This document shows positions 21,004-56,340 of a stretch of DNA of 64,000 nucleotides, piece after piece. The notes below the pieces were generated by a model. The model did not search any database. It worked only from the letters and a program-made list of their open reading frames with translations, and had not been told where the DNA came from. A program made the translations under genes and the position numbers. How positions within the stretch are numbered: the first letter of the stretch is position 1; each line of letters begins with the position of its first letter. The stretch is taken from the IMG/VR virus record IMGVR_UViG_3300043251_000023, positions 9,544 through 73,543 of that record. One strand, 5' to 3'. Origin of the DNA: a virus.

Positions 21004-21279
21004 ATGCCGCTGACCGCCAAGGGCGAAGAGATCAAATCCGCGCTCACCAAGGAGTACGGCAAGGAAAAGGGCGAGCAGGTCCTCTACGCGGGCAAGAACA
21101 AAGGCACGTTCACTGGGATCGATTCCACCCCCGCCGGCCTAAATACCGTCATCGACGCAGTCTGCTCGATGTGCGACAGCATCGACAAGATGACCGCGCG
21201 GCTCGGAGCGCACTGCGACGACCGGCGGGTGATCGGCGGCGTCGGGCATGACGCGACGAACATCAAGGTCGTCTCGTGA
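21004..21279 (+). CDS. conserved small phage protein (MPLTxKG...YG...G..V.YA..NKG)
   Basis: Recurrent motif; coupled to the protease gene. Confidence 0.75.
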   Translation: MPLTAKGEEIKSALTKEYGKEKGEQVLYAGKNKGTFTGIDSTPAGLNTVIDAVCSMCDSIDKMTARLGAHCDDRRVIGGVGHDATNIKVVS

Positions 21280-33851: not shown

Positions 33852-35525
33852 ATTCCTGTAAAATCGCTGATCGACATCGACTTGAACGATCAGAAGTTCG
33901 TCGCTTTCAAAAAGCTGCACGATCAATACACGGCCGCACTCGCGAAGGCCCCGGCCCAATGGTCTATGGTCAATGCTGCAATCGGAAAGACCACAGAATC
34001 GACGCGCAAGCAGTTGACGGTCACCCGCCAACTCGCGGCGGAAGCGGCCAAGGTCCCGGCGTCGCTCGAAGCCGCGGTCGTGAAGTGGACGGCAATCGAC
34101 CGAATCACCCGGAACGTCGCGGGGACGGTCGGCTCGATCGCGCAGTCGATCTTCCGCATCGGGGCGGTGACCGGCGTGGTTGGGGGTCTGTTGGGGCTGG
34201 GAGGCCTCTTCGGCATCGATCGGATGGCCTATGGCGTCGCGGCGGGGCGGCGCTCATCGCTCGGCCTAGGCCTCGGCTACGGCCCGCAGCAGTCCTTTGG
34301 CGCGAACTTCGGCCGGCTGGTCGATCCCGAGTCGTTCCTGTCCGCCGTCGCCGGGGCGAAGTTCGACGTTAACCAAAGGGTCGGCCTCCTCGGCGCCGGG
34401 CTGACGCAGGCTCAAATTAACGGCGATACCGCGCAGACCGCCGTCGCGTTGCTCGACAACCTTAAACGGATCGCCGACACCACCAATCCGGCTCTTTACG
34501 GTCAAGTCATCCAAGCCCGCAGGATGGGAAATTTCGTTTCCACCGAAGACTTGAACCGCCTCCACCAGACATCGGCGGCTGAATATCAGCAGGTGCGCGC
34601 AGGGTTTTACGCGAACGTCGGGAAGAACAACGTTCCCGGAGACGTACTCAAGGGCTGGCAGGACTTCACGACGCAGTTACAGAACGCCGGCAACTCGATC
34701 TTCAACACGTTCGTTCGGGGATTGGCCCCGCTCGCTCCGGGTCTGACGCGGCTGTCGGACGCGGCCGAAAAGACAATCCACAGCTTCATGGCGTCGCCCG
34801 CGCTCGGGGATTGGATCAAGAAGGTCGACGTCGGGCTCGAGAAGTTCGCCGGCTACGTCGGCACGCCGGAATTTCAGAAGAGCGTCGAATCGTTCGTCGA
34901 GGGACTTTCGAAACTCGCCTCAACGGTATGGCGGTTCGTCCAATGGTTCGGCGGCGGGACGGGCGGTGCGCACGTCGCGGACCGTGCCAAATGGGCGCGG
35001 CTTCACGGTATGGGCCTCGAAACGTCAGGGGAGATGCGCGCGCGCCGGGCGGCCGGAACGGAAACCGCGCTCGGGCAACTCGGCCGCATCTTCGGGATCG
35101 GCGGCGGCACGATGACGATGGATCAGCTCATGGGCGTCGTCCGCAAGTCCGAGGCGAGCGGCGACCAAGCGGTGAGCCCAGCGGGCGCAATCGGCCGCTA
35201 CCAGATCATGCCGGGGACCGGGGCGATGTACGGCGCGAGCCCGCAGCAACTCATGGACCCGGCGACGAACGAGGCGGTGGCGCGGAAGTATCTCGCGTCG
35301 CTGGTCCAGAAGTACCACGGCGACACGCAGAAGGTCTTGGCCGCTTACAACTCCGGGCCGGGACGGGAGGACGCCGTTCTCGCCGGCAAGTCACAGATGC
35401 CGGCGGAGACCGCGCGCTACGTCGACCGCGCAAAGGGGCTTGACGGCTACGCGCCGACGGTGGTGACCATCGAGACCAAGGCCGGGGCCGATGTGGCGGT
35501 CAGTATCAACGGATTGAAAAACTAG
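33852..35525 (+). CDS. tape measure protein with C-terminal lytic transglycosylase (SLT); probable ATT start
   Basis: SEASGDQAVSPAGAIGRYQIMP...LAAYNSGPG; AGGAGG 5 nt before in-frame ATT. Confidence 0.85.
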   Translation: MPVKSLIDIDLNDQKFVAFKKLHDQYTAALAKAPAQWSMVNAAIGKTTESTRKQLTVTRQLAAEAAKVPASLEAAVVKWTAIDRITRNVAGTVGSIAQSIFRIGAVTGVVGGLLGLGGLFGIDRMAYGVAAGRRSSLGLGLGYGPQQSFGANFGRLVDPESFLSAVAGAKFDVNQRVGLLGAGLTQAQINGDTAQTAVALLDNLKRIADTTNPALYGQVIQARRMGNFVSTEDLNRLHQTSAAEYQQVRAGFYANVGKNNVPGDVLKGWQDFTTQLQNAGNSIFNTFVRGLAPLAPGLTRLSDAAEKTIHSFMASPALGDWIKKVDVGLEKFAGYVGTPEFQKSVESFVEGLSKLASTVWRFVQWFGGGTGGAHVADRAKWARLHGMGLETSGEMRARRAAGTETALGQLGRIFGIGGGTMTMDQLMGVVRKSEASGDQAVSPAGAIGRYQIMPGTGAMYGASPQQLMDPATNEAVARKYLASLVQKYHGDTQKVLAAYNSGPGREDAVLAGKSQMPAETARYVDRAKGLDGYAPTVVTIETKAGADVAVSINGLKN

Positions 35526-37106: not shown

Positions 37107-37376
37107 TGTCTGCTCCGCTTGCAATCTCTGCAGGAAACGCCAGATCGCCTTATAGCTTCCGATTCCTGTCAGTGCGATCTGGTGGGCGTTGAGTCCGCTT
37201 CGGTGAAGTTCGATGATCCGATCGTACCAACCGGGCGCTTTCTTTCGATAGCGACGGGATACCTCCCGCGTTGTTCCGTAATCGTATTTGCACGATGTGC
37301 ATCGGCGCTGATTGCGCCTGATCCGATAGACCTTGGAACACCCGCATCTCGGGCAGCACTCATTCTCCAGACCCAT
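37098..37376 (-). CDS. Zn-ribbon + HTH protein (IS1595-transposase N-terminus-like)
   Basis: CPRCG...CTSCK; GLNAHQIA..GIGSYKAIW. Confidence 0.6.
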   Translation of the reverse strand: MGLENECCPRCGCSKVYRIRRNQRRCTSCKYDYGTTREVSRRYRKKAPGWYDRIIELHRSGLNAHQIALTGIGSYKAIWRFLQRLQAEQTLR

Positions 37377-38314
37377 GTTCGCCTCTGATGTTCGGTCATC
37401 CCTGTGGCTGCGCTGAGAAGATCAAGAAGTTGGCGCATAGTAGCATCGACGTTTTGCCCGCGGCATTTGAACATAAACGTTAATTCACTGCGTCCTCGAT
37501 CTACATCTAAACAGGCATCAAGCATCAATAGAGCGGCGTTCCCCATCGACTTCTGAAAATCGCGCCTCCGCATCATTGATGTGTATTGGCGTTCGGTAAG
37601 ATCACCGCGTTTCTGATAGTGCAGACCACCGCGCGGTTCCGACCAATCAATGCTGACGTTTGGCTGGATCGCCGCCGCCTCCATATCCCACTGCCAAGAC
37701 CGGCCGGCGCGGAGTTGAAGCGCGGTGATCTTTTTTTCTGCATAAAGCTGCATGAGAATGTCGCGTTCGGATGGCGCGACAAGCTTACCGCCATCTTCGG
37801 ATTGATAATGCTCTACATTGAATTGCTGCCGCTCTGCCACATCAGCCATTGGGAAAGGCTGGTCTGCAAAGTCAGGTTTGTTGTCCCTCGGACGGTTTGC
37901 TAGATATTGCGCAACACTCTCAGCCAACGCCGACTCCATCGGGGTCCGTGGCGACTGCGGCTTCTGTGTGCGCTTCTGCCTCTTCCACCATCCGGGATGA
38001 TCGGCCATGAACTGCTCCCATTGGGCGGGGAGCATGTCGCCCTTCAGATTATTGCACTCTCTGCAGCACGGCACTAGCTGCGTGCCGCCAGCGGACGCGG
38101 GTACATAATGATCGCGCGTCGCGGCGACGCGCGAATGCGACGAAGTCCTCTCCATGAGTCGTTTGCAATAAGTGCACGGAAGCCCCTCGCCTTTGCGACC
38201 GCGAAGATTGAGCGGCGGCTCAACAAAGAAAAATGTTTTTGCTCCGGTGTTGCGGTCGATCTCTTTATAAAGAGGCTTGCGACCGTGTCCGTGCCGCGAC
38301 GTTCTAGTGCCCAT
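37169..38314 (-). CDS. HNH endonuclease fused to a helical (DUF6456-like) domain
   Basis: CTYC...TRDHYVP.S.GG...CRECNNLKG; LMQLYAEKKITALQLRAG. Confidence 0.75.
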   Translation of the reverse strand: MGTRTSRHGHGRKPLYKEIDRNTGAKTFFFVEPPLNLRGRKGEGLPCTYCKRLMERTSSHSRVAATRDHYVPASAGGTQLVPCCRECNNLKGDMLPAQWEQFMADHPGWWKRQKRTQKPQSPRTPMESALAESVAQYLANRPRDNKPDFADQPFPMADVAERQQFNVEHYQSEDGGKLVAPSERDILMQLYAEKKITALQLRAGRSWQWDMEAAAIQPNVSIDWSEPRGGLHYQKRGDLTERQYTSMMRRRDFQKSMGNAALLMLDACLDVDRGRSELTFMFKCRGQNVDATMRQLLDLLSAATGMTEHQRRTWVWRMSAARDAGVPRSIGSGAISADAHRANTITEQRGRYPVAIERKRPVGTIGSSNFTEADSTPTRSH

Positions 38315-38410
38315 AGAGAATCCTCACCATCGCCAGTTCCAAGAAACTCGCCGCCATCGATGGCCGGCGATAACAAAGCGCCGCAAGCAGGAAACAGCAG
38401 GCGGTAGCCA

Positions 38411-39442
38411 TCAGACACTCTCTGTCCAAGGACGATCTTCCGTGCCGAGCATCGGCTGATCAAAAGATATGCGAGGCCCGGCGCCATCGTATTTTAGGGG
38501 CAGCGTTTTGAAATGCTTGGTGATGTACCTCCCAACAGCATCGTTTAGGTCGCCGACTGCAATATCGCCGGACAGCAGACCCACAATCATGTCCTGACAG
38601 ACATCCGCGCGGATGTGCTCGGGCCAGCTATCAGGAACGGCACCATTGACCAGCAGCACGAGATCGCGAGCACCGTCCGGCTTTTCGGGATCGTGCGCCA
38701 TGAACGGATAAAATAATTGCTTGCTGCGAGCGATACCGCGTTCACGGTCGCGATAGTCTTGGCCCGCATTTTCGTGAGTCGATATGCGCCATTCGGCGCA
38801 GTCAATGCGGTCGCTAAATCGGTCAACGCGCTGCAACTCCCAACAATGTTGGCCACCGACCATCTTCACATATTCGGTTAGTCCCTCGATATTTTTGGTG
38901 ACCGACGGATTGTCGTACAGGCGCCACAGAAAACTCCAAAGATGAGGCTTACTCGGCGGTCTCAGCGGCCCGCAGAGCTGCGAAAAGGCGGCGTTATTTA
39001 CGAGCTTGAGACCATCGCTCATAGTCTCCGCTTCCGCCGCCATCATCAGTAATATAAAATTCCACATGCGATGAGCGCGCCCGCGGTTCATGGCGCCGCG
39101 ATAAAGCAACAGCGGCGCAAATGTTTTTTCGATGCCCGGTCGGATGATCAGGTCCGACAGATAGTTCATTCCGGGATTTGTTGCCGTTCCCGTAGAATAC
39201 CAATGGTAAGGGCCCTTGCTCGAATTGAGCGCGCGAATCTGCTCCGGGCTCCGCTCGATGCGCGGCTTGCTTTGACCCCCAGGGACTCCGAAGTGAAGTC
39301 GAAACCAGCCGCGCGTTCCGGTTTGGCGACCAATGCGATTGTGGATAGCCTCAACGCGCCCGCTTTCCGTTAGCGGGCCTGGCGCGATCCAGATGCCGCG
39401 AGCAATCTCGCGTTCCTGTGGCGTTATTTCTATGCTCGGCAT
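38411..39442 (-). CDS. hypothetical protein
   Basis: 343-aa ORF with AAGGGAG SD. Confidence 0.75.
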   Translation of the reverse strand: MPSIEITPQEREIARGIWIAPGPLTESGRVEAIHNRIGRQTGTRGWFRLHFGVPGGQSKPRIERSPEQIRALNSSKGPYHWYSTGTATNPGMNYLSDLIIRPGIEKTFAPLLLYRGAMNRGRAHRMWNFILLMMAAEAETMSDGLKLVNNAAFSQLCGPLRPPSKPHLWSFLWRLYDNPSVTKNIEGLTEYVKMVGGQHCWELQRVDRFSDRIDCAEWRISTHENAGQDYRDRERGIARSKQLFYPFMAHDPEKPDGARDLVLLVNGAVPDSWPEHIRADVCQDMIVGLLSGDIAVGDLNDAVGRYITKHFKTLPLKYDGAGPRISFDQPMLGTEDRPWTESV

Positions 39443-43019: not shown

Positions 43020-44093
43020 ATGGCGAGCCCGGTCTCCCTTTACGCGCCAGCGGCGACCGTCGTCACGGTGGGCGGCCAGCCGATCACGGCGGCCTATGGG
43101 CCTTTGCTCGGCGGCTTCATCCAGAATCCGTATAGCAACATCGACCAGGGGACGATCTTCGCGGAGCCGCTGTTCGTCAGCATCGATGGCCCTGCGGCGC
43201 TCTCCGACACCGGAACGACGACACGCCTCGAGGCCGGGGGCATTTTTCAGATCCCGCCGGGGCTAACCGGGAACGTCAGCGTCAACGCGGAAACCTCCGG
43301 GCACAAGTTCTCTGGGGTGGTCTTCCAATCTTCGACCCCGTTCCCGCCGACGCCGCAACCCGGCACTTTCCCGCCGTCCGAGCCGACGGTGGTGACGACC
43401 GTCATCCCGTCCTACCTCTACCAGCAATACCAGGACGACGACGATCTCCAGGCTTTCGTCGAGGCTTACAACGCCCTGGCACAGGGTTACGTCGACTGGT
43501 TCGTGAACACGCCGCTTCCGGTCTACACGAACGCCCTGATCGCCGGGCCGCTTCTGGATTGGGTTGCCGGCGGCGTCTACGGCATGATTCGGCCAGCGCT
43601 TTCCTCCGGGCGCAACCGGGACATCGGCCCAGTGAACACCTACGGGCCGAACACGCTGGAGCCCAACCGGCGGAAGGAAATCGGCCCACGGAACGTCGTC
43701 GCGACCTCCGACGATGTTTTCAAGCGGATAATGACGTGGAATTTTTACAAGGGGGACGGCAACGTCTTCGACATCCGGTGGCTGAAGCGGCGGATCAAGA
43801 GGTTCCTGATCGGCCCCAACGGAACGGCGCCGAACGTCGATGAGACCTACGAAATTAGCGTGACCTACGGCAACGGAGTCATCGCGATTCGCATCAGCGT
43901 CGGAACGCGGACGGTCACCGGCGGCGCGCTGCCAAATCGTTTCGGCTGCAATAGGCTGACGCCGAACGCGCTGAAAACCTTGTTCGTCCCGTCGCCGACG
44001 GTTCCTTTTCCGCTCGCGCCGGTACTGCAACAAGCACTACAGTCAGGCGTGCTACAAACTCCATTCCAATATGCTATAACGATTGCGGTCTAG
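43020..44093 (+). CDS. baseplate wedge subunit (DUF2612-like) with extra N-terminal domain
   Basis: IPSYLYQQYQDDDDLQAF, LLDWV, DDVFKRIMTWNFYKGDG; N-domain paralogous to 46133. Confidence 0.75.
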   Translation: MASPVSLYAPAATVVTVGGQPITAAYGPLLGGFIQNPYSNIDQGTIFAEPLFVSIDGPAALSDTGTTTRLEAGGIFQIPPGLTGNVSVNAETSGHKFSGVVFQSSTPFPPTPQPGTFPPSEPTVVTTVIPSYLYQQYQDDDDLQAFVEAYNALAQGYVDWFVNTPLPVYTNALIAGPLLDWVAGGVYGMIRPALSSGRNRDIGPVNTYGPNTLEPNRRKEIGPRNVVATSDDVFKRIMTWNFYKGDGNVFDIRWLKRRIKRFLIGPNGTAPNVDETYEISVTYGNGVIAIRISVGTRTVTGGALPNRFGCNRLTPNALKTLFVPSPTVPFPLAPVLQQALQSGVLQTPFQYAITIAV

Positions 44094-44104: not shown

Positions 44105-44737
44105 GTGTCCATATTTTTGATGGCGAATAATGCGTCGAGCACGCTCGCCGCGCCCATATCGAACTCCGCGACGACGGTCTCGCTCGCGGTCGGAACGGGA
44201 GCGCTGTTTCCCAACCCTAGCGCCGGCCAGCAATTCCCCCTCACCTTCAACGATGCCGCGACCGGGCTTTTGACGGAGATCGTCTATTGCACCTCGAGGG
44301 CCGGGGACACGCTCACCATCGTCCGGGCGCAGGAAGGAACGACTGCGCAGGCGTGGCTGGCGGGAGACCTCGCGGCGAACCTCATCACGGCAGGATTGCT
44401 CGCGGCCTACCAGCAGAGCGCGGCGCTCAGCCCGGCGCGGACGGTCACGGCCTCCGGGGCCTTCGCGATGAGCACGGCCGATGCCGGCGGAGGCGTCGGT
44501 CTTGACAGGATTGTCGGCCCTGCGGTTTCCTCGACCACGCTCCCGGTCTCGACCGATGGGCAAACCTACTGGATCGAGGACCTCGCCAGGAACTTCAACG
44601 CCTATCCGGTGACGGTGACATTTCCCGGGGGAACGACTGGACCGAACGGCGCCGCGACGGTCACGCTCAATGTCAACGGTCAGTGCGCGCAGTTCCGCTT
44701 CTACGCCGACAGCAACATTTGGAGTTTCCGACCATGA
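44105..44737 (+). CDS. proximal tail fibre/baseplate-anchoring protein
   Basis: ANNASSTLA...EIVYCTSRAGDTLTIVRAQEGTTAQAW. Confidence 0.75.
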   Translation: MSIFLMANNASSTLAAPISNSATTVSLAVGTGALFPNPSAGQQFPLTFNDAATGLLTEIVYCTSRAGDTLTIVRAQEGTTAQAWLAGDLAANLITAGLLAAYQQSAALSPARTVTASGAFAMSTADAGGGVGLDRIVGPAVSSTTLPVSTDGQTYWIEDLARNFNAYPVTVTFPGGTTGPNGAATVTLNVNGQCAQFRFYADSNIWSFRP

Positions 44738-46131
44738 CGAAGAGAATCGCCGCCTTTGCGGCCGGTCTTTTCCTTCTCCTCGCCTTCGCCTTCCCGGCGG
44801 CGGCGCAGTTCGACCAGGCGTCCTACGCCGGGACCGGAGCGGGCTCCGCGAACGCGCAGACCATCACCTTGCCGAACGCCACGCAATACAGCGATCTTCT
44901 CGGCGTTCTGATCAAGTACATTCCCGGCGTGACGAACACGGCCGCGGCCACGCTCGCCGTATCCGGTAACGGCGGTGCGCTGACCGGCGGTCCCATCTCT
45001 TTCCGCAAGCCGTCCATCGGCGGTCTGGTCGCCCTGACCGGCACCGAACTGATCGTCGGGCAACCCGTTTGGATCATGTACGACGGGACCTATTTCGACG
45101 TTCTGAGTGTGACCAGCAGCACGGTGACGGCCGCGAATCTCGCAAACTCGGCGCTCGGTTTTATGCCAGTCAATTCTCAGCTCAATGCTGCGGTGTCGGC
45201 TAACGCGCTGACGATCTCACTGTGTTCGGCCAACTCCGGCAGCAATACGTGCATCAATCCAAGCGCGACGAGTCCGGTCCTGATCCCGTTCCGTGATTCC
45301 ACGATTGCCTTTGGTGATCCGACTATCGTTCCGGTCACTGGCGCGCTCAGCTTCACCATCGCGTCTGGGCAAACGATGGGCTGCGTCAATAACCAGATGT
45401 GCCGGCTCTGGATTCTCGCCTTCAACAATGCCGGGACGGTCCAGCTTTGCGCGTTCAACGCGCTCAGCGGAACGTCGGTGGCGCCGATCAACGAGGGCGT
45501 CCTGCAGACGAGCCAGTCCGGCACTTCAGGCGGCTCGTCGGCGCAGCTTTATTACTGCAACGCCTCGGCGGTGACGAACAAGGCGGTCCGCATCCTCGGC
45601 TACGTCGAGATCAGCGAGTCCACGGCGGGGACTTGGGCGACCGGGCCGACCTACGTTCAGTTGTTCGGCCCGGGCGTGAAGAAGCCCGGTGACGTAGTCC
45701 AGCGCATTTTCTCGACTAATAGCACTTCGTATTCGTCGACGACGTCCTACGCGGCGGCGACGAATTTCAACCAAGCCATCACGCCGACGTCGGCGGCAAA
45801 CCCTGTGTTTGTTCATGCAGAAGCCAATTACCAGACGACCGCGAACGACGGCAGCAACGCTCAGATCGGCCGAACGAGTTGCTCGAATCTGGTGGGGAAT
45901 AATGCGGTGCTCAGTGGAAGCACCGCCGTGATTGGCATGGCGCCAGTATCGGCCATCGACTCCCCAAACACCACCTCGTCCGTCACTTACGTTCTGTGCC
46001 TGAAATCGTCGGTTAATGGCGCGACCGCGTTCAACAATAATACCGGCAACATCAGTTCGATGTCGGTCGAGGAGATTATGGGCGCGCTAGAACCGGCGAA
46101 CGACGACCAACCGCTCCGCATGGTGGGCTGA
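44734..46131 (+). CDS. tail fibre-like protein with N-terminal Sec signal peptide
   Basis: MTKRIAAFAAGLFLLLAFAFPAAA/Q; fibre motifs NTAAATL, PGDVVQ, AITPTSAAN; 8 Cys. Confidence 0.75.
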   Translation: MTKRIAAFAAGLFLLLAFAFPAAAQFDQASYAGTGAGSANAQTITLPNATQYSDLLGVLIKYIPGVTNTAAATLAVSGNGGALTGGPISFRKPSIGGLVALTGTELIVGQPVWIMYDGTYFDVLSVTSSTVTAANLANSALGFMPVNSQLNAAVSANALTISLCSANSGSNTCINPSATSPVLIPFRDSTIAFGDPTIVPVTGALSFTIASGQTMGCVNNQMCRLWILAFNNAGTVQLCAFNALSGTSVAPINEGVLQTSQSGTSGGSSAQLYYCNASAVTNKAVRILGYVEISESTAGTWATGPTYVQLFGPGVKKPGDVVQRIFSTNSTSYSSTTSYAAATNFNQAITPTSAANPVFVHAEANYQTTANDGSNAQIGRTSCSNLVGNNAVLSGSTAVIGMAPVSAIDSPNTTSSVTYVLCLKSSVNGATAFNNNTGNISSMSVEEIMGALEPANDDQPLRMVG

Positions 46132-46132
46132 C

Positions 46133-46459
46133 ATGGCAGCGACTCCCGTCACGCCGCAACCGGCGCTCAACTCTCAGGTCGCCGTCGGCGGAACCGCGGT
46201 GAATGTCTTCGGGCCGGCGCCGAATGGCGGCTATCTCCAGAACCCGGCGTCGGCAAACGATCAGGGCATCGGCGCTGCGGAAGACTTGATCGTCAATCCA
46301 GTCACCGCGGCAGTCGCGCCCGGCGTCGCCGGCGGCGTCAATGGAACGAACTTCCGCATCCCCCCCGGCGGGGGATGGAATCTCATCGCTGGACAGACGA
46401 CTCCTACTTCGATGAACGCGGCAACGTCGGGCCACAAGATAAGCGGCGTGTCTTATTGA
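46133..46459 (+). CDS. small virion protein, paralog of the 43020 N-domain
   Basis: GGYLQNP.S..DQG...AE.L.V...NAATSGHKISGV. Confidence 0.7.
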   Translation: MAATPVTPQPALNSQVAVGGTAVNVFGPAPNGGYLQNPASANDQGIGAAEDLIVNPVTAAVAPGVAGGVNGTNFRIPPGGGWNLIAGQTTPTSMNAATSGHKISGVSY

Positions 46460-46469
46460 GGAACGAAAA

Positions 46470-49400
46470 ATGCTGAATATCGCGCGCGCATTTGCGTTCC
46501 TTGCCGTCGTTGCATTCGGCGGTTCCGCCGTTGCACAACCTGGTCCGGGACAAAATAGCGGCCCGGTCCCACCGCCGTCGCCTTGGCTCTATGCGGCGCC
46601 GCAGATTTATCCCCCGACTGGATCTTGCGTGACGATGCCGCAGACCGTGCCAGGCGGCTGCCCGGGCGCAGGCAACGCGATCAACGTCTCTGGCGGCTAT
46701 TATCTTAACGGCGTTGCCCTTGATAGCATAAGCAGCGTCACGCCTCCTCTAAGTGTCAGCTCTGGAGTTCTCAGCATTCTCAATGGGACCTCCATTGCCA
46801 ATCCCGGTACGGGAACGCTTGAAGATTTAGTGCCATCGCAGACGATCACCGGAACCAGCAAAGTTTACGCCACGGTCGATCTCTGGAAGCGGACACGACG
46901 TTCCAATTCCGGAACGGCGATGACCGACACGCTACCGGCTTCTTCGGCAACGGGCATGGTCAATGGCGCCCGCATTGAGATCAAGAACGTGGATGCTTCG
47001 GCGACGGACACGGTCAGTGCCGGCGCCGGGACGACAATCATTGGCGGGGCATCCTTCTCGCTCCAGGCAGGCCGCGACCTAGAGTTGACCTATGACCTCG
47101 CAAACACGACGTGGCGAGCGGAGGCCAATACCGATACCGCGGCGCTCATCAATCAGCCGAACTTCTACAGCGCGGACAACTATTTTGGTTCGGGCCGTCC
47201 AGTGTGCGACCCGCGTGCAAAAGGGGCAGTTGGCAACGGGAGCACAGACGACAGCGCGGCGTTCAAGGCTTGCCGCGTGGCACTTGATGCTATTGGCGGC
47301 GGCGTTATCTATGTGCCGCCAGGGAATTACTGTCTAAAGACCGCCGACGCGAACAACGCGGTCATCGCAATTTCGGCAACGCCGATCACGGTCATCGGCG
47401 CCGGCATCAACGTCTCAAATCTATGGACCTGCGGTACCGACGTTACAATCGGTTACGCGAATATCGTTGGCGCCGGCTTCTTGAATTTGAGCTACCTGGG
47501 CAAAGGGGGTCAAGGTAACCCTAACGACACCACCTTTGGTGCTACGTCGCCAGCTTTCAAATTTGATACGTCATGCGGTATTTGTCGGATCAGTTACGTG
47601 CGCGGCTTTGGCGGCCTCTATGCTCTGCAAAACCTTGGCTTTGATAGCTGGGTATCGGACTTCTCATTCGGCTACACTTACGGCAACGCGATCATGTATG
47701 AGGCTGGCAACGGCCATCGGGTGGAACATGGCGCGCTGGATCAAAATTGGCCGGTCGTTCTGCCGAACCAAAATTCAGTCACGATCAGCGCGTGGCAAGC
47801 GACGCATTCCTACAGCGGCAACGGCGCTTCGAACACGAATGTCGTTTCGACGCAAGGCTACAATATTCAGCTTGTGAGTGCGAGTTGCACTAGCGGCGGT
47901 ACCGCGCCGCCCTTGAATAATTACGGAACTGTGATTGTGGATGGGTCCTGTTCCTGGCAACTCGTCGGCAACACGACCTATTACGGGGAGGATTGCGACG
48001 GGAATTGCGCCGAACTTATCCTGCATGGCGAGGTCGATCTGAATTGCGGCGGCTGCACATACGACTTCGCCATGACGAACAACAATGCTGGAACCGCCCC
48101 CAACGTTGTGACCGTCGACGGATCAAGCATCGGGCAGGCCATAATCGCACCTATCGGGCTGCTCGCCGGGTCAGGGTTTACGCTGTCGAACAGCCATATC
48201 GCGACCTCCGTACAGGGTGGGGCGTTGGGCCTATACGTCCCGGCAAGCGGCTTCACCGGGGACGCGTCCATTGTCGGCAATAGATTTAGCGGGGGCGGCG
48301 CGTGCATCGGAATTGGCACTGCGCCGTCTGGACAGGCCGGATATACGATAACCGCTAACCGGTTTTTAAGCTGTTCCCAGGCTATCGATTATTTCAATAC
48401 CGGGGCGGCGCTGCACATTACGGCCGGTCACAATACGATGGTCGGCGTCAGCAATGCGTGGGTGTCGCCCGCCGGCTCAAGCTATTACGAATTCACCAAT
48501 AACGATGTGGGTGGAGCGGCAGTCACCTTCACGAGTGGGGACGCCAACAAGAAGATCGCCGGCAACGACGGTTCGGCAACGCCTGTTAGTAACGGTGGCA
48601 CTGGTTTAGCTACATTGACAGCGCACGCGGTTCTGCTCGGCGAGGGCGCCGGTAACGTCGCCTTTGCCACCATCGGCACCGGTGGCAGGCTGTTGATCGA
48701 CCAGGGCGCGGTCGATCCCGTCTTCACCGCGATGAGCGGCGACGCCGCGCTGGCAGCGAGCGGCGCGCTAACGCTGGCGACAGTGAACGGCAACGTCGGC
48801 ACCTTCGGCGGCGCCAACGCCATCCCGAGCATCACCGTCAACGGCAAGGGCCTCGTCACCGCCGTCTCGACCGTGGCGCCGAACCCGACCCAGGTTAACG
48901 GCGTCTCCTTCGGCGCCGCACCGATCGGCACCAACACCGTCTGCGTTGCGACCAGCACCACTGCTTGCGCTTGGAGTTCGGTGCCGAACGCGGCGCTCGC
49001 CAACTCGACGATCTCGGGCGTCTCGCTCGGCGGCAGCCTCGCGGTGCTGAGCTACGGAACGCACCTGACCAACGGGGCCGGGGCCGGCTCCTACAACGGC
49101 TCCGCCGCGTCAACGCTCGCGACTGACGCGACCAACACCAACACGGCGTCGACCATCGTCGCCCGCGACGGCTCCGGCAACTTCTCCGCCGGGACAGTCA
49201 CGGCCAGCCTGACGGGGCACGCGTCACTGGACCTCGCGCTGACCGGGGGGGCGATGTCGGGCAACATCGCGATGGCCGGCAACTCGCTCACTGGAGCGAT
49301 GGGGCTGAACGGCGTCGAGACGATTCTCAGCGGCGGCAACATCGGCTTCGGCACCGAGACCAACCCGCAGGCGGCGTTCGTCTTCAGCGCGAACACCACG

Positions 49401-50159
49401 ACCGGCATCACGTTTCCGGTCAACACGAGCGGGCTCTGGTCGATCAGCGCCAACTCCGGCAACGTGCCGGGGTTCAACGCCCTGGCGTTTGCCACGAACG
49501 GCAGCAACTTCTTCTTTCGCGCCGACGGCACCGCGGCGAGCCCCACGGCGCTCGCGCTCAACGACAACATCGGCGCCATCACCTGGGGCGGCTACGCCGG
49601 GTCCACCGCCGGCTACGTCTCCAGCAAGGCCCGCATCGCGGGCATCGTGATCGACGCCTCGGGCTACGGCACCTCGACGCAGGGCACCGGCATCGAGTTC
49701 GACGCCACGCCGTCCGGCAGCACCACCCGCGCCCAGGCCGGTCGCTTCATGGCGGGCTTCATCGTGGGCACCGGCACGACCGACCCCGGCGCCGGTAATG
49801 AACTTGTCGGTGGTCATATCCTAGCAACCGGAACGGCGCCGACGATTTCTGCCTGCGGCACCGGAACGCCGACGATCTCCGGCGGCGACAACTTCGGGAC
49901 CGTGGTGGCTGGCACTGTCGCCACGTCGTGCGTCGTCAACTTCGGAGCGACCTGGGGTGCCGCCCCGCGTTGTGCCGTCTCGTCGGGAACAGCCATTGCT
50001 TCTTTGACTGTCAGCGCCACGACGACGCAACTGACGATCACCGGGACCGCGCTCGGCGGCGACACGATCAACTGGGTCTGCGGGAGCACCGCCAGCCTGG
50101 AACCGAATGGTTCGCCGGCCAACGACAATGCGCCACCGTGGCTATCCAAAGCCGCTTGA
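46470..50159 (+). CDS. tailspike/fibre with pectate-lyase-like beta-helix and N-terminal Sec signal peptide
   Basis: MLNIARAFAFLAVVAFGGSAVA/Q; GAVGNGSTDDSAAF...GGGVIYVPPGNY; fibre motifs ITVNGKGLVT, TIVARDGSGNFSAG. Confidence 0.85.
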   Translation: MLNIARAFAFLAVVAFGGSAVAQPGPGQNSGPVPPPSPWLYAAPQIYPPTGSCVTMPQTVPGGCPGAGNAINVSGGYYLNGVALDSISSVTPPLSVSSGVLSILNGTSIANPGTGTLEDLVPSQTITGTSKVYATVDLWKRTRRSNSGTAMTDTLPASSATGMVNGARIEIKNVDASATDTVSAGAGTTIIGGASFSLQAGRDLELTYDLANTTWRAEANTDTAALINQPNFYSADNYFGSGRPVCDPRAKGAVGNGSTDDSAAFKACRVALDAIGGGVIYVPPGNYCLKTADANNAVIAISATPITVIGAGINVSNLWTCGTDVTIGYANIVGAGFLNLSYLGKGGQGNPNDTTFGATSPAFKFDTSCGICRISYVRGFGGLYALQNLGFDSWVSDFSFGYTYGNAIMYEAGNGHRVEHGALDQNWPVVLPNQNSVTISAWQATHSYSGNGASNTNVVSTQGYNIQLVSASCTSGGTAPPLNNYGTVIVDGSCSWQLVGNTTYYGEDCDGNCAELILHGEVDLNCGGCTYDFAMTNNNAGTAPNVVTVDGSSIGQAIIAPIGLLAGSGFTLSNSHIATSVQGGALGLYVPASGFTGDASIVGNRFSGGGACIGIGTAPSGQAGYTITANRFLSCSQAIDYFNTGAALHITAGHNTMVGVSNAWVSPAGSSYYEFTNNDVGGAAVTFTSGDANKKIAGNDGSATPVSNGGTGLATLTAHAVLLGEGAGNVAFATIGTGGRLLIDQGAVDPVFTAMSGDAALAASGALTLATVNGNVGTFGGANAIPSITVNGKGLVTAVSTVAPNPTQVNGVSFGAAPIGTNTVCVATSTTACAWSSVPNAALANSTISGVSLGGSLAVLSYGTHLTNGAGAGSYNGSAASTLATDATNTNTASTIVARDGSGNFSAGTVTASLTGHASLDLALTGGAMSGNIAMAGNSLTGAMGLNGVETILSGGNIGFGTETNPQAAFVFSANTTTGITFPVNTSGLWSISANSGNVPGFNALAFATNGSNFFFRADGTAASPTALALNDNIGAITWGGYAGSTAGYVSSKARIAGIVIDASGYGTSTQGTGIEFDATPSGSTTRAQAGRFMAGFIVGTGTTDPGAGNELVGGHILATGTAPTISACGTGTPTISGGDNFGTVVAGTVATSCVVNFGATWGAAPRCAVSSGTAIASLTVSATTTQLTITGTALGGDTINWVCGSTASLEPNGSPANDNAPPWLSKAA

Positions 50160-50197
50160 CCGCGCTATTCTTGAGTTCGTCAACAGGGAAAACCACC

Positions 50198-50680
50198 ATG
50201 CGAATCATCGCCATTGCTCTTGCCGCCATCGCCATTGTGACGCCAGCCGCCGCTCAATCTCCAAAGCCACTCACCGTCCTGCAATGCCTCACCGTTCTTA
50301 AAGGCCTCTCCGCTCTCGGCTGCGTCGGCGAACAACTCGACGGGACGTGCACGCCCGACGCCAAGCAGTACAAACTCGGCGCGCTCCGGCTGACCACCGG
50401 CCTGAATATCTCGCGCCTTCAGGACTTGGCGAACACGGTCCAGCGCGCGCAGAACGGCTTCAACTCAGAACTGCCGCCGCTCGATCCGAAGGCCTTCGAT
50501 GCCGACAAGGTCGCGCGCGGCAACCAGATTCAAGCGAACTGGAACAAGATTATCGACGCGGAGTGCCCGGTCCAGCCCGGCCACATCAAGGCGTCCGACT
50601 TGAAGCTCGGCGATGGTCCGGACGAGAACGCGGTCCCGCCGTCCGTACTTGGGGCGCTGGCGCCGATCATTGACCCCTGA
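50198..50680 (+). CDS. secreted fibre-associated (chaperone-like) protein
   Basis: MRIIAIALAAIAIVTPAAA/Q; 4 Cys; directly after the tailspike. Confidence 0.7.
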   Translation: MRIIAIALAAIAIVTPAAAQSPKPLTVLQCLTVLKGLSALGCVGEQLDGTCTPDAKQYKLGALRLTTGLNISRLQDLANTVQRAQNGFNSELPPLDPKAFDADKVARGNQIQANWNKIIDAECPVQPGHIKASDLKLGDGPDENAVPPSVLGALAPIIDP

Positions 50681-50693
50681 CCGGGAGGCAAAA

Positions 50694-51524
50694 GTGCAGC
50701 ATCCTTTTCAAGTTCTCAGCCCGGAATACACGCATCTGCTCGCGCAGATGAAGATCACGCGAGTCGCTGACGTCGACGCGACGGCGGAGAGGTTGCTGAA
50801 GTATGTCGACGCCGGACATTACGATGCTGGGTGTAAGGCAACCGGAGTCCCGATCATCGTCGCCGCCGCTTCCTTCGAGCGGGAGGCGTCGTCAAACTTC
50901 AACCTCAACCCGGCGCAGGGATGGCCGCTGCACGAAAAGTCGAAATGGACTCCCTACAATGGCCCATTTGACGATTGGACGACGGCGCAGATCGCGGCCT
51001 ACAAGATCGACGGCCTTGACAAGATCGGAGCCGCAAACTGGTCATGGGAATACGGTTGCTATGAGGAGGAGGGATTCAACGGGTGGGGTTACCGCGCGCA
51101 CGGCATCCCGTCGCCGTACCTCTTCGGTGGGACCAATATCCAGAAGCCTGGAAAGTACACCTCAGACGGCCGCTTCGATGCGTCCGTGATGGACACGCAG
51201 CTTGGGGTGATCCCGATCATGCTTCGGATGGTCCAGATCAGGCCGTCTCTCGCGCTGCCGTTTCCTTTCCCCGCCGCCACAGCGAGCCCGGTTGTCGTCC
51301 CGGTCCCGACGCCGGCGCCCGTCGGGCTGCAGAACGCGGAGATGCTCCAGAACGCCTTGAATGAACTCGGCGCCGACCCGAAACTCGCCGTGGACGGCAA
51401 CTTCGGAAGACAGACGCGGCGCGCGCTGATCGCTTTCCAGGCCGCGAACGGTCTCGAACCTGATGGCTTGGCAGGCCCGCTCACCTGGAAAATTATCAAC
51501 TCCAAGATCGCGATGCCGAAGTAA
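50694..51524 (+). CDS. endolysin (lysozyme-like) with C-terminal peptidoglycan-binding domain
   Basis: EREASSNF, EGFNGWGY...SPYL.GGT...GKYTSDG; LQNALNELG...VDGNFGRQT...FQ...DGLAGPLT. Confidence 0.88.
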   Translation: MQHPFQVLSPEYTHLLAQMKITRVADVDATAERLLKYVDAGHYDAGCKATGVPIIVAAASFEREASSNFNLNPAQGWPLHEKSKWTPYNGPFDDWTTAQIAAYKIDGLDKIGAANWSWEYGCYEEEGFNGWGYRAHGIPSPYLFGGTNIQKPGKYTSDGRFDASVMDTQLGVIPIMLRMVQIRPSLALPFPFPAATASPVVVPVPTPAPVGLQNAEMLQNALNELGADPKLAVDGNFGRQTRRALIAFQAANGLEPDGLAGPLTWKIINSKIAMPK

Positions 51525-51540
51525 TCAACAGGGGAAGCCG

Positions 51541-51909
51541 ATGCAGAACAGCGAATCCTGGAGCAACACGCAGAAGATTCTCGCGTTCGTCATCGTCGAC
51601 GCGCTGATCGTCGTCATCCTGATTTGGATATTTCACCCGCCAACCGGAGACGCCGCGTCGAACTCCGTTCTCAATGTCCTCGTCGGCGCGCTGGTTGGGA
51701 TGGCCGGCATGGTCGCCACCTTTTATTTTGGTTCGTCTCAGGGCTCGAAGGACAAGGACCAGGCGTTGATCGGCGTCGCGACTCAGTCCGGAACAGGGAA
51801 CGGCGGCGGTTCGACCTCGACCGCGACGGTGACGGCCCCGAGCGCGACAAGTCCTGGCTCCGCCACCGTGACCTCCACCGACCCCGCAACCCCAGCAAAG
51901 GCAGTCTGA
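51541..51909 (+). CDS. holin-like 2-TM protein
   Basis: Two TM segments, then FYFGSSQGSKDKD. Confidence 0.75.
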   Translation: MQNSESWSNTQKILAFVIVDALIVVILIWIFHPPTGDAASNSVLNVLVGALVGMAGMVATFYFGSSQGSKDKDQALIGVATQSGTGNGGGSTSTATVTAPSATSPGSATVTSTDPATPAKAV

Positions 51910-51912
51910 CTC

Positions 51913-52068
51913 ATGAACCCCGCACTCACCGCCGTCCTCGCCAACAACAAGGCCGATGTTCTTGCTATCGTCCAGAAGATCGGCCTAGAAACCATTATCG
52001 AACTGGCCCCACACTTTGCGGCCATCTTGGCCACTGCGCAGGCGGCGTCAGTTCCGAAGACCGCCTGA
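51913..52068 (+). CDS. small amphipathic protein (51 aa)
   Basis: MNPALTAVLANNKADVLAIVQKIG... Confidence 0.55.
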   Translation: MNPALTAVLANNKADVLAIVQKIGLETIIELAPHFAAILATAQAASVPKTA

Positions 52069-52164: not shown

Positions 52165-52971
52165 ATGACGCGCAAGTTTCTCCTGGCGACGACCGCGCTC
52201 GTCGCTCTGAGCGCCTCCGCTTTCGCCGCCGATCTTCCGTTGAAAGCACCGCCTGCCGCTCCTGCTGCTGCCGGTTCCGGCTGGTACGTTGGCATTCTCA
52301 CCGAAGCCGACGTTGCTCAATCGAACGTGAGTGGCACGAACGTATTCGCGACCAGCCTCGCCAGCGGTAATCTGACCGCAACCGGCGGCGCCGTGGGTGG
52401 CGAGTTCGGCTATATCGGGAATGGTCCCATCGGGTGGTATCGACTTCAGGCCACTGGCGAATGGAGCGACATTTCTGGCGCCGAGACCGTTCAATCGACG
52501 GCAACGACCAGCGCGGCGAGTGCAGCCGTTGCGAGCCGATGGTCCGCGACCCAAGAGTTCGACATCGGCTTCGAGTGGATTCAAAAAATCTACGCGGCGC
52601 TACCGACTCTCGGCGTCATCAACTTCCCGACGTTTACTCCGATCACGCCGACAGTCCCCGTCGGGGCACCGCGCCAGTACGTTGGCGTCGGCATCAAGGA
52701 AGCCGGCCTAACCGGCACCTTTGGCGCCGCTCAGGGTACCTCTGTCGGCGTCTACCCGATGATCACCGGCGGCTTCATCTGGCCAACGCTCAACGCGGCC
52801 GGCAAGCCGAACGGTGGCGCGATCGACGCCTCCGCCGGCGTGGCGTTTCCGGTCAAGGGATTCACCGTGGGGAACGCCTTCGCGACGGATGGTGCCCCTC
52901 TGACGCTCGGCGCTGGCGCTAGCCTCGGCACGCAGTACTGGACCCGGCTGAGCTACCAGTTCGGCCTGTGA
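52165..52971 (+). CDS. outer-membrane beta-barrel protein (Omp25/RopB-like)
   Basis: Signal peptide, then AADLPLKAP, GWYVG, GGEFGY; C-terminal RLSYQF. Confidence 0.8.
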   Translation: MTRKFLLATTALVALSASAFAADLPLKAPPAAPAAAGSGWYVGILTEADVAQSNVSGTNVFATSLASGNLTATGGAVGGEFGYIGNGPIGWYRLQATGEWSDISGAETVQSTATTSAASAAVASRWSATQEFDIGFEWIQKIYAALPTLGVINFPTFTPITPTVPVGAPRQYVGVGIKEAGLTGTFGAAQGTSVGVYPMITGGFIWPTLNAAGKPNGGAIDASAGVAFPVKGFTVGNAFATDGAPLTLGAGASLGTQYWTRLSYQFGL

Positions 52972-55821: not shown

Positions 55822-56340
55822 ATGAAAGCCGCCCTCCTCGCCACCATGCTCGCCGTCTCGATCGCCAGTCCGGCCGAAGCCCGGAAGCGCGAACCCCCGA
55901 CCCTGGCCGAACGGCTGGCCGGCGCGGTGGAGGGCTTCGTCCGCAGGGCGGCGGCCGCGGCGGCTACCTCCGGGGCGGTTTTGGCGGACGCGAGCCAGCG
56001 GCCGCCTCTGGGCCGGCGTGAGGCCCTCTACGAGGACGGTCGGATTGTCCCGAATCCGGATGGATGCCCGAAGACCCTGTTCTGCGGTTGTGGAGTGTCG
56101 GTGAAGGTCTACGGGCGGCCGATCCCGGCGCTCTACTCCGCGTCGTCCTGGGGCCGGTTCCCGAAGGCGAGTTGCGGCAGCGGCCGGGTGGCGGTCTTTT
56201 CGGGCCACGTCGCCTACATCCTGGCCTGCAACGGCGACGGGACGGCGCTGGCCTACGATCCGAACAGTGGTGGCGGCCTAACTCGGGTCCACACGATCAG
56301 CCTGCCGAGCCTGATCGTCGAGCCGCCGGCGAGCCTTTAG
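55822..56340 (+). CDS. secreted CHAP/NlpC-like cysteine amidase-like protein
   Basis: Signal peptide ending SPAEA; FCGCGV ... GHVAYI ... DPNSG. Confidence 0.65.
   Translation: MKAALLATMLAVSIASPAEARKREPPTLAERLAGAVEGFVRRAAAAAATSGAVLADASQRPPLGRREALYEDGRIVPNPDGCPKTLFCGCGVSVKVYGRPIPALYSASSWGRFPKASCGSGRVAVFSGHVAYILACNGDGTALAYDPNSGGGLTRVHTISLPSLIVEPPASL

Follow-up and report, generated by a model that had tools for sequence, protein, structure and literature searches.

In CBA120 TSP4-N (AD-XD1-XD2-XD3), G7C gp66/gp63.1 and T4 gp9/gp10, a separate protein is bound to the baseplate by its N-terminal end, carries a gp9/gp10-type XD1-like domain and holds non-covalent receptor-binding partners, which in these systems as described are all leaderless and assembled in the cytoplasm (PMC8825819). 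The tail fibre gp47 of Pseudomonas phage Pa193 (PDB 9B45) is a single leaderless chain of 962 aa that has a baseplate-binding end of its own, and its baseplate-proximal shaft beads I-III are described within residues 1-340 (PMC11456595). Three described systems pair a phage gene or a phage-type fold with export. The MAT fibres of Bdellovibrio bacteriovorus have a signal peptide, a conserved beta-rich N-domain and a phage-type trimeric fibre, some with an S74 chaperone, and offer a precedent for phage-type fibres folding after Sec export; they are described as adhesins of a predatory bacterium, not as phage genes beside a baseplate (PMC10769870). WceF of Pantoea stewartii is an exported trimeric glycanase with a tailspike fold, but its signal is Tat rather than Sec and its gene is described as part of a bacterial polysaccharide cluster with no virion link (PMC7949094). 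Sec leaders cut before Gln were reported by Matrishin et al. (2023) in Porphyromonas phages, on capsid, spanin and unknown genes of these Bacteroidota phages, and were read there as an adaptation to host secretion (PMC10367356). Our literature searches found no description of Sec-exported fibres for tailed phages.

The locus described here shares features with each of these systems and differs from each. Like the CBA120, G7C and T4 adaptors, it encodes a separate protein with an N-terminal baseplate-binding domain and, tentatively, an XD1-like domain, but its candidate partners have Sec leaders and paired cysteines. The part that is the baseplate-binding end of a single chain in Pa193 is here a separate gene, while the rest starts with a signal peptide. 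Unlike the Porphyromonas leaders as described, two of those found here are on fibre-like and tailspike-like genes. The window, by which we mean the whole stretch of 64,000 nucleotides analysed, is part of a complete 73.5-kb myovirus (contractile tail) of Rhizobiales-type soil bacteria. Recombination genes ERF and YqaJ are present in the phage and relatives lie within bacterial MAG contigs, which suggest a temperate lifestyle. Three genes with Sec-type leaders (at 44734, 46470 and 50198) are found between the baseplate and lysis genes:

43020 to 44093, plus strand: baseplate wedge protein, gpI-like; residues 124-356 match phrog_8212 (1e-63)
43020 protein, residues 1-102, plus strand: extra N-terminal domain, here called X, a paralog of the 46133 protein
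44105 to 44737, plus strand: leaderless fibre anchor or adaptor, 210 aa; baseplate-binding domain 1-118, putative XD1-like domain 139-206
44734 to 46131, plus strand: putative exported distal tail fibre, 465 aa, 8 Cys; shaft bead 28-131, middle beta domain, TNF/C1q-like tip 322-452
46133 to 46459, plus strand: leaderless X protein, 108 aa, paralogous to the X domain of the 43020 protein
46470 to 50159, plus strand: putative exported mosaic tailspike-fibre, 1229 aa, 22 Cys; N-module 1-117, shared module 101-226, right-handed beta-helix about 238-704, fibre-like C-terminal part
50198 to 50680, plus strand: small putative exported protein, 160 aa, 4 Cys; chaperone-like by position only
50694 to 51524, plus strand: endolysin with no leader and a C-terminal PG_binding_1 domain; start uncertain (ATG 50613 or GTG 50694)
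51541 to 51909, plus strand: putative holin; two hydrophobic segments by eye, matching PHROG families without known function

The C-terminal part of the 43020 protein matches cultured myoviruses and is labelled DUF2612 in Pantoea phage PdC23. The order I, anchor, leader-bearing fibre, X and variable leader-bearing protein is kept in the close relatives L001, L005 and L008, in all of which a conserved X protein of the 46133 type precedes the large exported protein. In L001 the lysis genes follow. Three further loci (L004, L006 and L056) share the gene order as far as X, and in P0042 the X protein is fused behind a protein of the 465-aa type. L009 encodes two leader-bearing proteins between the baseplate genes J and I. 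Among the window ORFs scanned, there was no fibre-like gene besides 44105, 44734 and 46470. A leader-bearing porin-like gene lies downstream of the lysis genes.

The leaders were evaluated with our own von Heijne-style rule, which is not a trained predictor. It agrees with the original prediction that the ORFs at 44734, 46470 and 50198 begin with basic-hydrophobic leaders, exactly as quoted there, and places each cleavage site before a Gln:

44734 to 44805, plus strand: Sec-type leader of the 465-aa fibre, 24 codons, MTKRIAAFAAGLFLLLAFAFPAAA followed by Q; predicted cleavage between AAA and QF
46470 to 46535, plus strand: Sec-type leader of the 1229-aa protein, 22 codons, MLNIARAFAFLAVVAFGGSAVA followed by Q; predicted cleavage between AVA and QP
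50198 to 50254, plus strand: leader of the 160-aa protein, 19 codons, MRIIAIALAAIAIVTPAAA followed by Q

By this rule all three have the positive n-region, uncharged hydrophobic h-region and small -3 and -1 residues of a Sec signal. The n-regions (MTKR, MLNIAR and MR) have no twin arginine and are therefore not of the Tat type, and with Gln rather than Cys at +1 these are not lipoprotein signals; a lipobox scan of the window returned spurious antisense hits and no lipoprotein ORF. The same rule finds no leader in the 44105, 46133 or 43020 proteins, as had been claimed for the first two. As a control, the rule was applied to 99 crude ORF calls from the window and flagged five (44734, 46470, 52165, 55822 and 19198). 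The 19198 leader was judged false, its site being at residue 40. The crude caller missed the 50198 ORF, which was flagged when tested directly. Translation from downstream starts, raised earlier as an objection to export, finds no support: no in-frame start was found near the cleavage site, each of the three starts has a Shine-Dalgarno-like motif 7-9 nt upstream, and at 44734 the start codon and the stop codon of the preceding anchor gene (44105) overlap as ATGA.

Homologs of all three proteins also have leaders. In the 465-aa family, 109 of 120 relatives listed, from 380 matches, pass the rule from their annotated start, 112 when an internal start is allowed, and 116 have a leader by eye. The leaders of these relatives vary from 14 to 35 residues and are not conserved in sequence, while in the 48 aligned relatives Q25 never changes, conservation of A24 reaches at least 90% and the mature end keeps a QFADQAT motif. 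Proteins sharing modules with the 1229-aa protein pass in 24 of 30 cases (28 by eye) irrespective of which module is shared, and 18 of 19 proteins of the 160-aa family pass, all 20 family members having a leader. The predicted Gln at +1 holds for the three window proteins and is found at 18 of the 24 predicted sites among the 1229-aa relatives, but it is not conserved among the 160-aa proteins, which have A, D, E or Q at this position. Two exported relatives, P0101 and P0113, have their leader directly before a classical fibre N-domain, with PHROG tail profiles starting at residues 20 and 25. In leaderless fibres with 40-41% identity to them over the whole length, tail profiles begin at residue 1, and both exported proteins align collinearly with leaderless fibres (L020, L053 and AH02 gp15), starting at their first mature residue. 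The L070 protein has the same arrangement. Across hundreds of relatives, these comparisons support the view that the leaders behave as real, selected Sec signal peptides.

The leaderless 44105 protein had been proposed as the baseplate anchor, and its fibre N-terminal domain matches fit that role. It matches phrog_6427 and phrog_8469 (tail fibre) at profile positions 4-121 only, its residues 1-95 find matches in 115 phage records, at the N-terminal ends of long fibres and tailspikes, and its profile matches the putative tail fiber protein of 8jov (E 9e-15). The XD1-like match is weak, an 8-sequence profile aligning with residues 104-170 of CBA120 TSP4-N (E 0.008-0.013) where XD1 is given as residues 80-178 (PMC8825819). 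An XD2 or XD3 docking domain was not found in the 210-aa protein, and XD1 is described as unable to dock trimeric partners across its axis (PMC8825819). The sequence matches support 44105 as a leaderless anchor or adaptor, which would make the host-recognition apparatus of this phage a split one.

The domain missing from the exported fibre is the one that 44105 provides: no N-terminal particle-binding domain follows the 465-aa leader, though one is present in P0101, P0113 and the L070 protein, all exported relatives. The AlphaFold2 model of the 465-aa protein (pLDDT 82.7) places a tip at its C-terminal end that matches the Bdellovibrio Bd2734 fibre tip (Z 13.2 with the C-terminal domain), phage receptor-binding heads and PRD1 P5, at Z 13-14. 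Residues 28-131 resemble residues 244-340 of Pa193 gp47 (Z 7.9, 28% identity over 91 residues), a weak match that in sequence reaches only E 0.7. Matches to the protein in BFVD are phage proteins, mostly uncharacterised, some of them named tail fibres. It matches gp15 of phage AH02 and has relatives at 59 viral loci; a search of the phage collection turned up no cultured relative whose homolog bears a leader. After the EIMG that ends the shared domain there is one further element:

46084 to 46128, plus strand: C-terminal tail ALEPANDDQPLRMVG, conserved and modelled as disordered (pLDDT 31-39)

This tail is present in 15 of 33 leader-bearing relatives and in none of 16 leaderless ones.

For the 1229-aa protein, a Pfam search of the window protein returned nothing, while its profile matches the Pectate_lyase_3-type starts of beta-helix enzymes. 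A model of residues 225-720 (pLDDT 78.8) matched AlgE6 (2e-10) and the Sf6, HK620 and Dettilon tailspikes (6e-7 to 1e-6) in Foldseek. Relatives have PF12708 (P0144) or PF13884 (P0153 and P0156), and among them roughly the first 100 residues of the large protein are kept while the remainder is swapped, a mosaicism of the attachment type. The folds modelled here support a fibre-like 465-aa protein and a tailspike-like 1229-aa protein, in line with the identities first given to them. The label of chaperone for the 160-aa protein fared less well. The protein had no Pfam or PHROG match, and in the Atlas it falls in unnamed viral clusters, with DUF1617 on 11-17% of the members of distant clusters. 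A chaperone of the Tfa, gp38 or gp57A type was considered and is not supported by family homology, only the position after a large fibre gene being fitting. A spanin is likewise not supported: the protein carries an A-x-A site, it lacks both a lipobox and a hydrophobic segment at its C-terminal end, and the window yielded no partner lipoprotein ORF.

The cysteine counts of 8 and 4, and the many in 46470, are as first noted, the last being 22. Together the three leader-bearing proteins have 34 Cys in 1854 residues (1.83%) versus 40 in 6559 (0.61%) in a set of 24 late proteins that have no leader (Fisher p 6e-6). Neighbouring cysteines are 3-39 residues apart, for example 164/173, 217/223, 239/275 and 383/422, and in the 160-aa family C30 and C123 are invariant. 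Across the 49 proteins compared in the domain that leaderless fibres share, 29 of 33 leader-bearing ones and none of 16 leaderless ones have concordant Cys pairs, a link carried by about two large clades and by only 2 independent pairs on well-supported branches. The pairs 217/223 and 239/275 are each always wholly present or wholly absent. Four leader-bearing proteins nested among leaderless ones lack a Cys pair, and three leaderless proteins are Cys-rich (L012 with 11, L038 with 8 and L036 with 6). The leaderless fibres of L020 and L053 and AH02 gp15 have C-terminal domains homologous to that of the exported fibre (31-41% identity) but no leader, concordant Cys pairs or C-terminal ANDN tail.

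These patterns bear on whether the hydrophobic N-termini might instead be retained as an assembly or anchoring helix on fibres that assemble in the cytoplasm. That is the textbook route for tailed phages, and AlphaFold2 models residues 2-17 of the 465-aa protein as a helix. We nevertheless regard it as very improbable: leader length and sequence change from relative to relative whereas the A-x-A site and a conserved mature end stay, no leaderless form has concordant Cys pairs, and P0101 and P0113 have the leader simply added before an otherwise complete fibre N-domain. Sec export and oxidative folding of the three proteins are well supported, and we consider them highly probable. With secretion signals and paired cysteines on the only fibre-like and tailspike-like proteins of this phage, we think it probable that its host-recognition parts reach their fold in the periplasm, separately from the rest of the particle.

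Exported proteins could also serve a lysogen. As morons expressed from the prophage, the three genes would supply it with secreted adhesins or a depolymerase, a use put forward in the original prediction and one with which the suggested temperate lifestyle and the porin-like gene after the lysis genes agree. The genes are packed in the late operon, however, with gaps of 0-38 nt and the ATGA overlap at 44734. Neither promoter-like sites (5 versus 2.8 expected, none of them preceding the three genes on the plus strand) nor terminator-like sites (10 versus 12.6 expected) are in excess, and the G+C of the genes is no different from that of their neighbours. We do not favour this use and consider it highly implausible.

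The explanation we put forward, with the balance tilted slightly against it, joins a split apparatus, Sec export, periplasmic maturation and docking at lysis. The baseplate built in the cytoplasm would carry only the leaderless adaptor 44105, with its fibre N-terminal anchor and XD1-like domain. The 44734 fibre, the 46470 tailspike-fibre and the 50198 accessory would be made as Sec precursors, cross the inner membrane unfolded, be cleaved by signal peptidase I after A-x-A, and become trimers with local disulfides in the periplasm. Once the inner membrane has been opened by the holin and the wall digested by the endolysin, the fibres would mix with the particles and then dock on the adaptor and baseplate. 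What the comparisons show is the leaders, the fibre and tailspike folds, the Cys pattern and the split anchor; export, cleavage and disulfides are inferred, and virion attachment still more so. That this last step takes place at lysis is a tentative proposal, somewhat more doubtful than not.

Exported proteins encoded beside receptor-binding genes are not always part of the virion, as T5 Llp, Cor and lambda Lom exemplify. The three proteins could likewise be exported without ever joining the particle and act on the envelope of the infected cell, the beta-helix enzyme and the fibre binding or cutting surface polysaccharide from the periplasmic side. This might destroy or mask receptors, excluding other phages or sparing progeny from loss on debris, or aid release. 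The leader genes adjoin the lysis cassette, and WceF shows that an exported tailspike-like glycanase exists in a bacterium, by the Tat route (PMC7949094). The 210-aa fibre would then be the real receptor binder: the XD1 fold is also described as a glycan-binding domain in CpaA and StcE (PMC8825819), so the 210-aa protein could be a minimal receptor binder and the exported proteins accessories. Its C-terminal domain, however, is about as conserved as the anchor (38-96% versus 53-93% identity), unlike a receptor-binding tip, and it is the exported proteins that are variable and mosaic. The large protein keeps a conserved N-terminal module that a free enzyme would not need, exported relatives retain a complete classical particle-binding N-domain, and the exported genes of L009 are within the baseplate cluster. 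On this evidence we consider a purely non-virion role unlikely.

Phage depolymerases occur both free and virion-bound. A single periplasmic pool could act on the nascent polysaccharide of the host and the same mature proteins arm virions at lysis, which is compatible with all the evidence given for attachment and for a non-virion role but is the least economical account; we think it improbable.

Returning to docking at lysis, it is conceivable, and we say so with more reserve than for the proposal as a whole, that this phage and a wide set of uncultured soil phages build fibreless particles with a bare adaptor in the cytoplasm and finish them outside it, disulfide-bonded fibres and tailspike that matured in the periplasm being added only when the holin merges the compartments. 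If true, infectivity would be acquired at or after lysis, by an assembly route that would be new for tailed phages.

The original prediction for this phage was that its fibre, its tailspike and their chaperone are exported to the periplasm, fold oxidatively there and join virions at lysis, or else serve as adhesins or a depolymerase secreted by the lysogen. The genes concerned lie in one row.

43020-44093: gpI-like wedge protein
44105-44737: 210-aa anchor or adaptor
44734-46131, plus strand: 465-aa distal fibre, with leader
46133-46459: 108-aa X protein
46470-50159, plus strand: 1229-aa tailspike-fibre, with leader
50198-50680, plus strand: 160-aa protein, with leader

The open reading frame starts at 44734, 46470 and 50198 are as first quoted, and a ribosome-binding motif stands ahead of each; the start at 44734 overlaps the preceding stop as ATGA. 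Our own von Heijne-style n/h/c-region rule placed a Sec-type leader in all three proteins with the cut before Gln, as had been proposed. By the same rule the neighbours at 44105 and 46133 are leaderless, again in line with the original prediction, and so is the wedge protein at 43020. Five of 99 crude ORF calls in the window are flagged by the rule, one of which was judged false. The three leader proteins hold 34 Cys in 1854 aa versus 40 in 6559 aa for 24 leaderless late proteins (p 6e-6), and the near-neighbour placement of their cysteines was also found as described. Judged by comparison with relatives, the three proteins are very probably exported and oxidatively folded.

A survey of homologs for conserved leaders had been suggested, and by our rule leaders recur in all three families. 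For the 465-aa protein there are 380 database relatives. Of these, 120 were listed: the annotated start gives 109 that satisfy the rule, allowing an internal start gives 112, and by eye 116 have a leader; the leader of P0067 is cut and P0073, P0103 and P0109 have none, the last two being short and missing the N-terminal part. Leader length in this family ranges from 14 to 35 residues and the leader sequence is unconserved. Across 48 aligned members, however, A24 reaches at least 90% conservation, Q25 never varies and the mature end QFADQATYAGTGAG is maintained. Because leader length and sequence vary while A24, Q25 and the mature end are kept, the alignment looks as it should for a signal peptide that is cleaved off, and unlike what a structural helix would give. 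Thirty other proteins share modules with the 1229-aa protein, 24 passing the rule and 28 having a leader by eye, irrespective of the module shared. The two leaderless sharers have only fibre-like C-terminal repeats in common with it. In the 160-aa family 18 of 19 relatives pass, and C30 and C123, among its four cysteines, are invariant.

The C-terminal two thirds of the 465-aa protein are present in 59 viral loci, which allowed leader-bearing and leaderless relatives to be compared. Before the 49-row counts, 13 of 61 viral and genome loci were left out as truncated or duplicate: L002, L043 and L044 (5' truncated), L039 (start not clear), and the near-identical copies L007, L023, L027, L029, L040, L049, L052, L054 and L055. 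The 49 rows were classed by eye as 33 leader-bearing and 16 leaderless; a looser rule with internal starts over-called leaders. Median Cys is 8 in the leader-bearing rows and 2 in the leaderless rows (p 5e-6), L012 (11), L038 (8) and L036 (6) being the leaderless exceptions. Cysteines of the shared domain fall in four pairs of columns. For 217/223 and for 239/275, every row has either the two cysteines together or neither (16 and 11 rows with the pair), and 291/305 occurs in 12 rows plus one single. At least one concordant pair is found in 29 of the 33 leader-bearing rows but in none of the 16 leaderless rows. Since the two main pair sets belong to two clades, few independent events underlie this association. 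A quick tree of the domain shows eight changes of leader state, only two of them forced by well-supported branches, and an independent-pairs test had two supported pairs only, so that it is underpowered and significance is out of reach.

Leaders were also found directly before a classical N-domain. Along their full length the database relatives P0101 and P0113 share 40-41% identity with the fibres of L020 and L053, which have no leader. Their PHROG tail profiles start at residues 20 and 25, right after the predicted cut, and at residue 1 in the leaderless fibres. The viral contig L070 encodes a leader, then the same N-domain, then a beta-helix; next come another beta-helix protein with a leader, a lysin and a porin-like gene. 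With P0101, P0113 and L070 so arranged, the leader can be nothing more than an addition to a virion-type fibre that is complete in other respects.

None of the three leader proteins has a match in Pfam or PHROGs, and tblastn against 50,697 phage records gave no match for the 160-aa protein and only partial ones for the other two. The AlphaFold2 model of the 465-aa protein (pLDDT 82.7) has three beta domains. Residues 322-452 are predicted to form a TNF/C1q-like head. Among its matches at Z 13-14 are chlamydial Pgp3, a Photorhabdus lectin and the fibre tip of Bdellovibrio Bd2734, with phage receptor-binding heads and PRD1 P5 among the lower-scoring ones. Phage AH02 gp15, a leaderless tail fibre with a homologous C-terminal domain, is labelled 'major tropism determinant'. 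Residues 28-131 are similar to gp47, the tail fibre of Pa193, at its residues 244-340 (Z 7.9; 28% identity across 91 residues), a likeness that is weak by sequence alone (E 0.7). This stretch of gp47 belongs to residues 1-340, which make up the baseplate-proximal beads of the fibre (PMC11456595). Foldseek with the whole model against the PDB returned only low-TM jelly-roll matches; the domain-level VIA search was informative. The 1229-aa protein is a mosaic in which residues 225-720 model as a right-handed beta-helix, similar to those of AlgE epimerases and of the Sf6, HK620 and Dettilon tailspikes, and PF12708 and the S74 intramolecular chaperone PF13884 occur in its relatives. Fold, position and evolutionary pattern mark the exported proteins as fibre and tailspike of this phage. 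The 160-aa protein matches only unnamed viral clusters among database entries, and a small leader-bearing gene occupies its place in relatives. Apart from its position behind the large gene, nothing supports calling it a chaperone, as the original prediction did.

The gene order is shared with related loci. L001, L005 and L008 each encode the gpI-like wedge, the anchor, the leader-fibre, the X protein and a variable large leader-bearing protein, with a small leader protein and lysis genes after the large protein in L001. The order is identical up to the X protein in L004, L006 and L056. Across phages the large protein has only the leader and a Pro/Gly-rich N-terminus in common. The leaderless X protein is paralogous to the first roughly 102 residues of the gpI-like protein (43020-43325), with 38-48% between the two in relatives. 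L009 encodes 586-aa and roughly 90-aa leader proteins between baseplate genes J and I; its wedge protein is without the X domain, and it also lacks a large exported protein of the Pro/Gly type. In P0042 a 465-aa-type protein is fused in frame with the X domain, though this may be an artefact as the source is a single 4.9-kb contig. Promoter-like and terminator-like sites showed no excess around the exported genes.

In 115 phage records, long fibres and tailspikes have N-termini that match the leaderless 44105 protein, whose tail-fibre PHROG matches are confined to the first roughly 120 profile positions. It also matches a solved 'putative tail fiber protein' (8jov, E 9e-15); no paper was found for PDB entry 8JOV. 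Residues 139-206 match residues 104-170 of CBA120 TSP4-N (E about 0.01), and these fall inside the XD1 domain (residues 80-178), a fold common to T4 gp9 and gp10 (PMC8825819). In eight relatives the C-terminal half is about as conserved as the anchor half, and the protein therefore looks from its sequence like an adaptor, not a variable receptor-binding tip. No further fibre-like gene was found among the window ORFs scanned. Once holin and endolysin merge the compartments, the exported fibre and tailspike would dock on this adaptor, a step we put forward only tentatively. Three findings raise its odds: an anchor gene that encodes an adaptor only, the match to the gp47 shaft beads, and leaders placed right before a classical N-domain. 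A caveat is that the XD1 fold is also glycan-binding in CpaA and StcE and that XD1 docks no trimers across the axis (PMC8825819). A complex prediction with three adaptor copies and three copies of fibre residues 25-145 (score 0.01, mark 0.32) is evidence neither way. The main rival to docking, that the proteins are exported yet non-virion and act on the host envelope, seems to us somewhat less likely. Even without joining the particle, exported phage proteins that resemble fibres and tailspikes and act on the envelope of the host would be a family undescribed in the open-access papers and preprints searched.

The C-terminal tails of both large exported proteins (46084-46128 and 50115-50156) resemble a host-type tmRNA tag. 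The 465-aa protein ends in ...ALEPANDDQPLRMVG and the 1229-aa protein in ...PANDNAPPWLSKAA; the tag in two MAGs carrying related loci is ANDNYAPVALAA. In the fibre family the tail comes after the EIMG end of the domain. It is found in 15 of 33 leader-bearing versus none of 16 leaderless relatives (Fisher p 0.0008, uncorrected for kinship) and, by motif count, in 84 of the 120 listed database relatives. The tail may serve as a degradation handle on precursor that stays unexported, or be recognised by a tail-specific protease in the periplasm.

The virus record of 73,543 bp, of which the window covers bases 9544-73543, has direct terminal repeats and a completeness rating of 100%. Its recognised genes include the following.

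Portal and capsid-type protein, sheath, and tape-measure protein with a lytic domain: encoded in the window
Baseplate hub and J-type wedge: encoded in the window
gpI-like wedge protein: C-terminal part matches cultured myoviruses
Endolysin with a peptidoglycan-binding domain, and holin-like protein with two segments: encoded in the window
Recombination genes ERF and YqaJ: encoded in the window

The large protein opening the head module (21276-23201) has a NUDIX-like N-terminal stretch (residues 1-66) besides a phrog_6216 match, and the protein at the tape-measure position (33882-35525) has a C-terminal lytic transglycosylase or endolysin-like domain at residues about 413-530. Two minus-strand genes (37169-39442) break the tail module between the post-tape-measure genes and the baseplate hub; an HNH endonuclease motif is present in one of them, and the other (38411-39442) gave no match. 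Directly after the lysis genes, 52165-52971 encodes a porin-like outer-membrane protein with a signal peptide and no Pfam match. L005 and L008 have homologs downstream of their fibre genes (33-38% identity), and a similar gene follows the L070 lysis genes. Another leader-bearing protein (55822-56340; 172 aa, 5 Cys), also without a Pfam match, has a Cys/His-rich C-terminal half. A simple lipobox scan recognised no spanin candidate around the lysis cassette (50198-52068) or elsewhere in the window; a spanin role for the 160-aa protein was rejected, and the scan found no lipoprotein ORF in the window. One speculation is that, should the outer membrane stay intact longer than the wall, a closed sac would be where particles meet the periplasmic fibres. 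On the host side, a search of genome contigs found fibre-gene relatives at two loci only, in one Rhizobiales MAG and one Xanthobacteraceae MAG; for the family of one of these loci, 3 of 201 genomes had a match.

To our knowledge, all textbook tailed phages assemble entirely in the reducing cytoplasm. Searches of open-access papers and preprints turned up no account of tail fibres or tailspikes with Sec leaders in tailed phages. The nearest items are signal peptides on other genes of Porphyromonas phages (PMC10367356), the Bdellovibrio MAT fibres (PMC10769870) and WceF (PMC7949094). In one survey 5% of prophage CAZymes have signal peptides, structural proteins having been excluded beforehand. 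If soil phages routinely export and disulfide-bond their receptor-binding proteins, there would be a two-compartment assembly step tied to lysis, and host Sec, signal peptidase and Dsb functions would become infection factors. Pipelines that discard leader-bearing proteins as non-structural would then mislabel host-range determinants, and in host-range work on laboratory strains such fibres would need periplasmic expression to fold.
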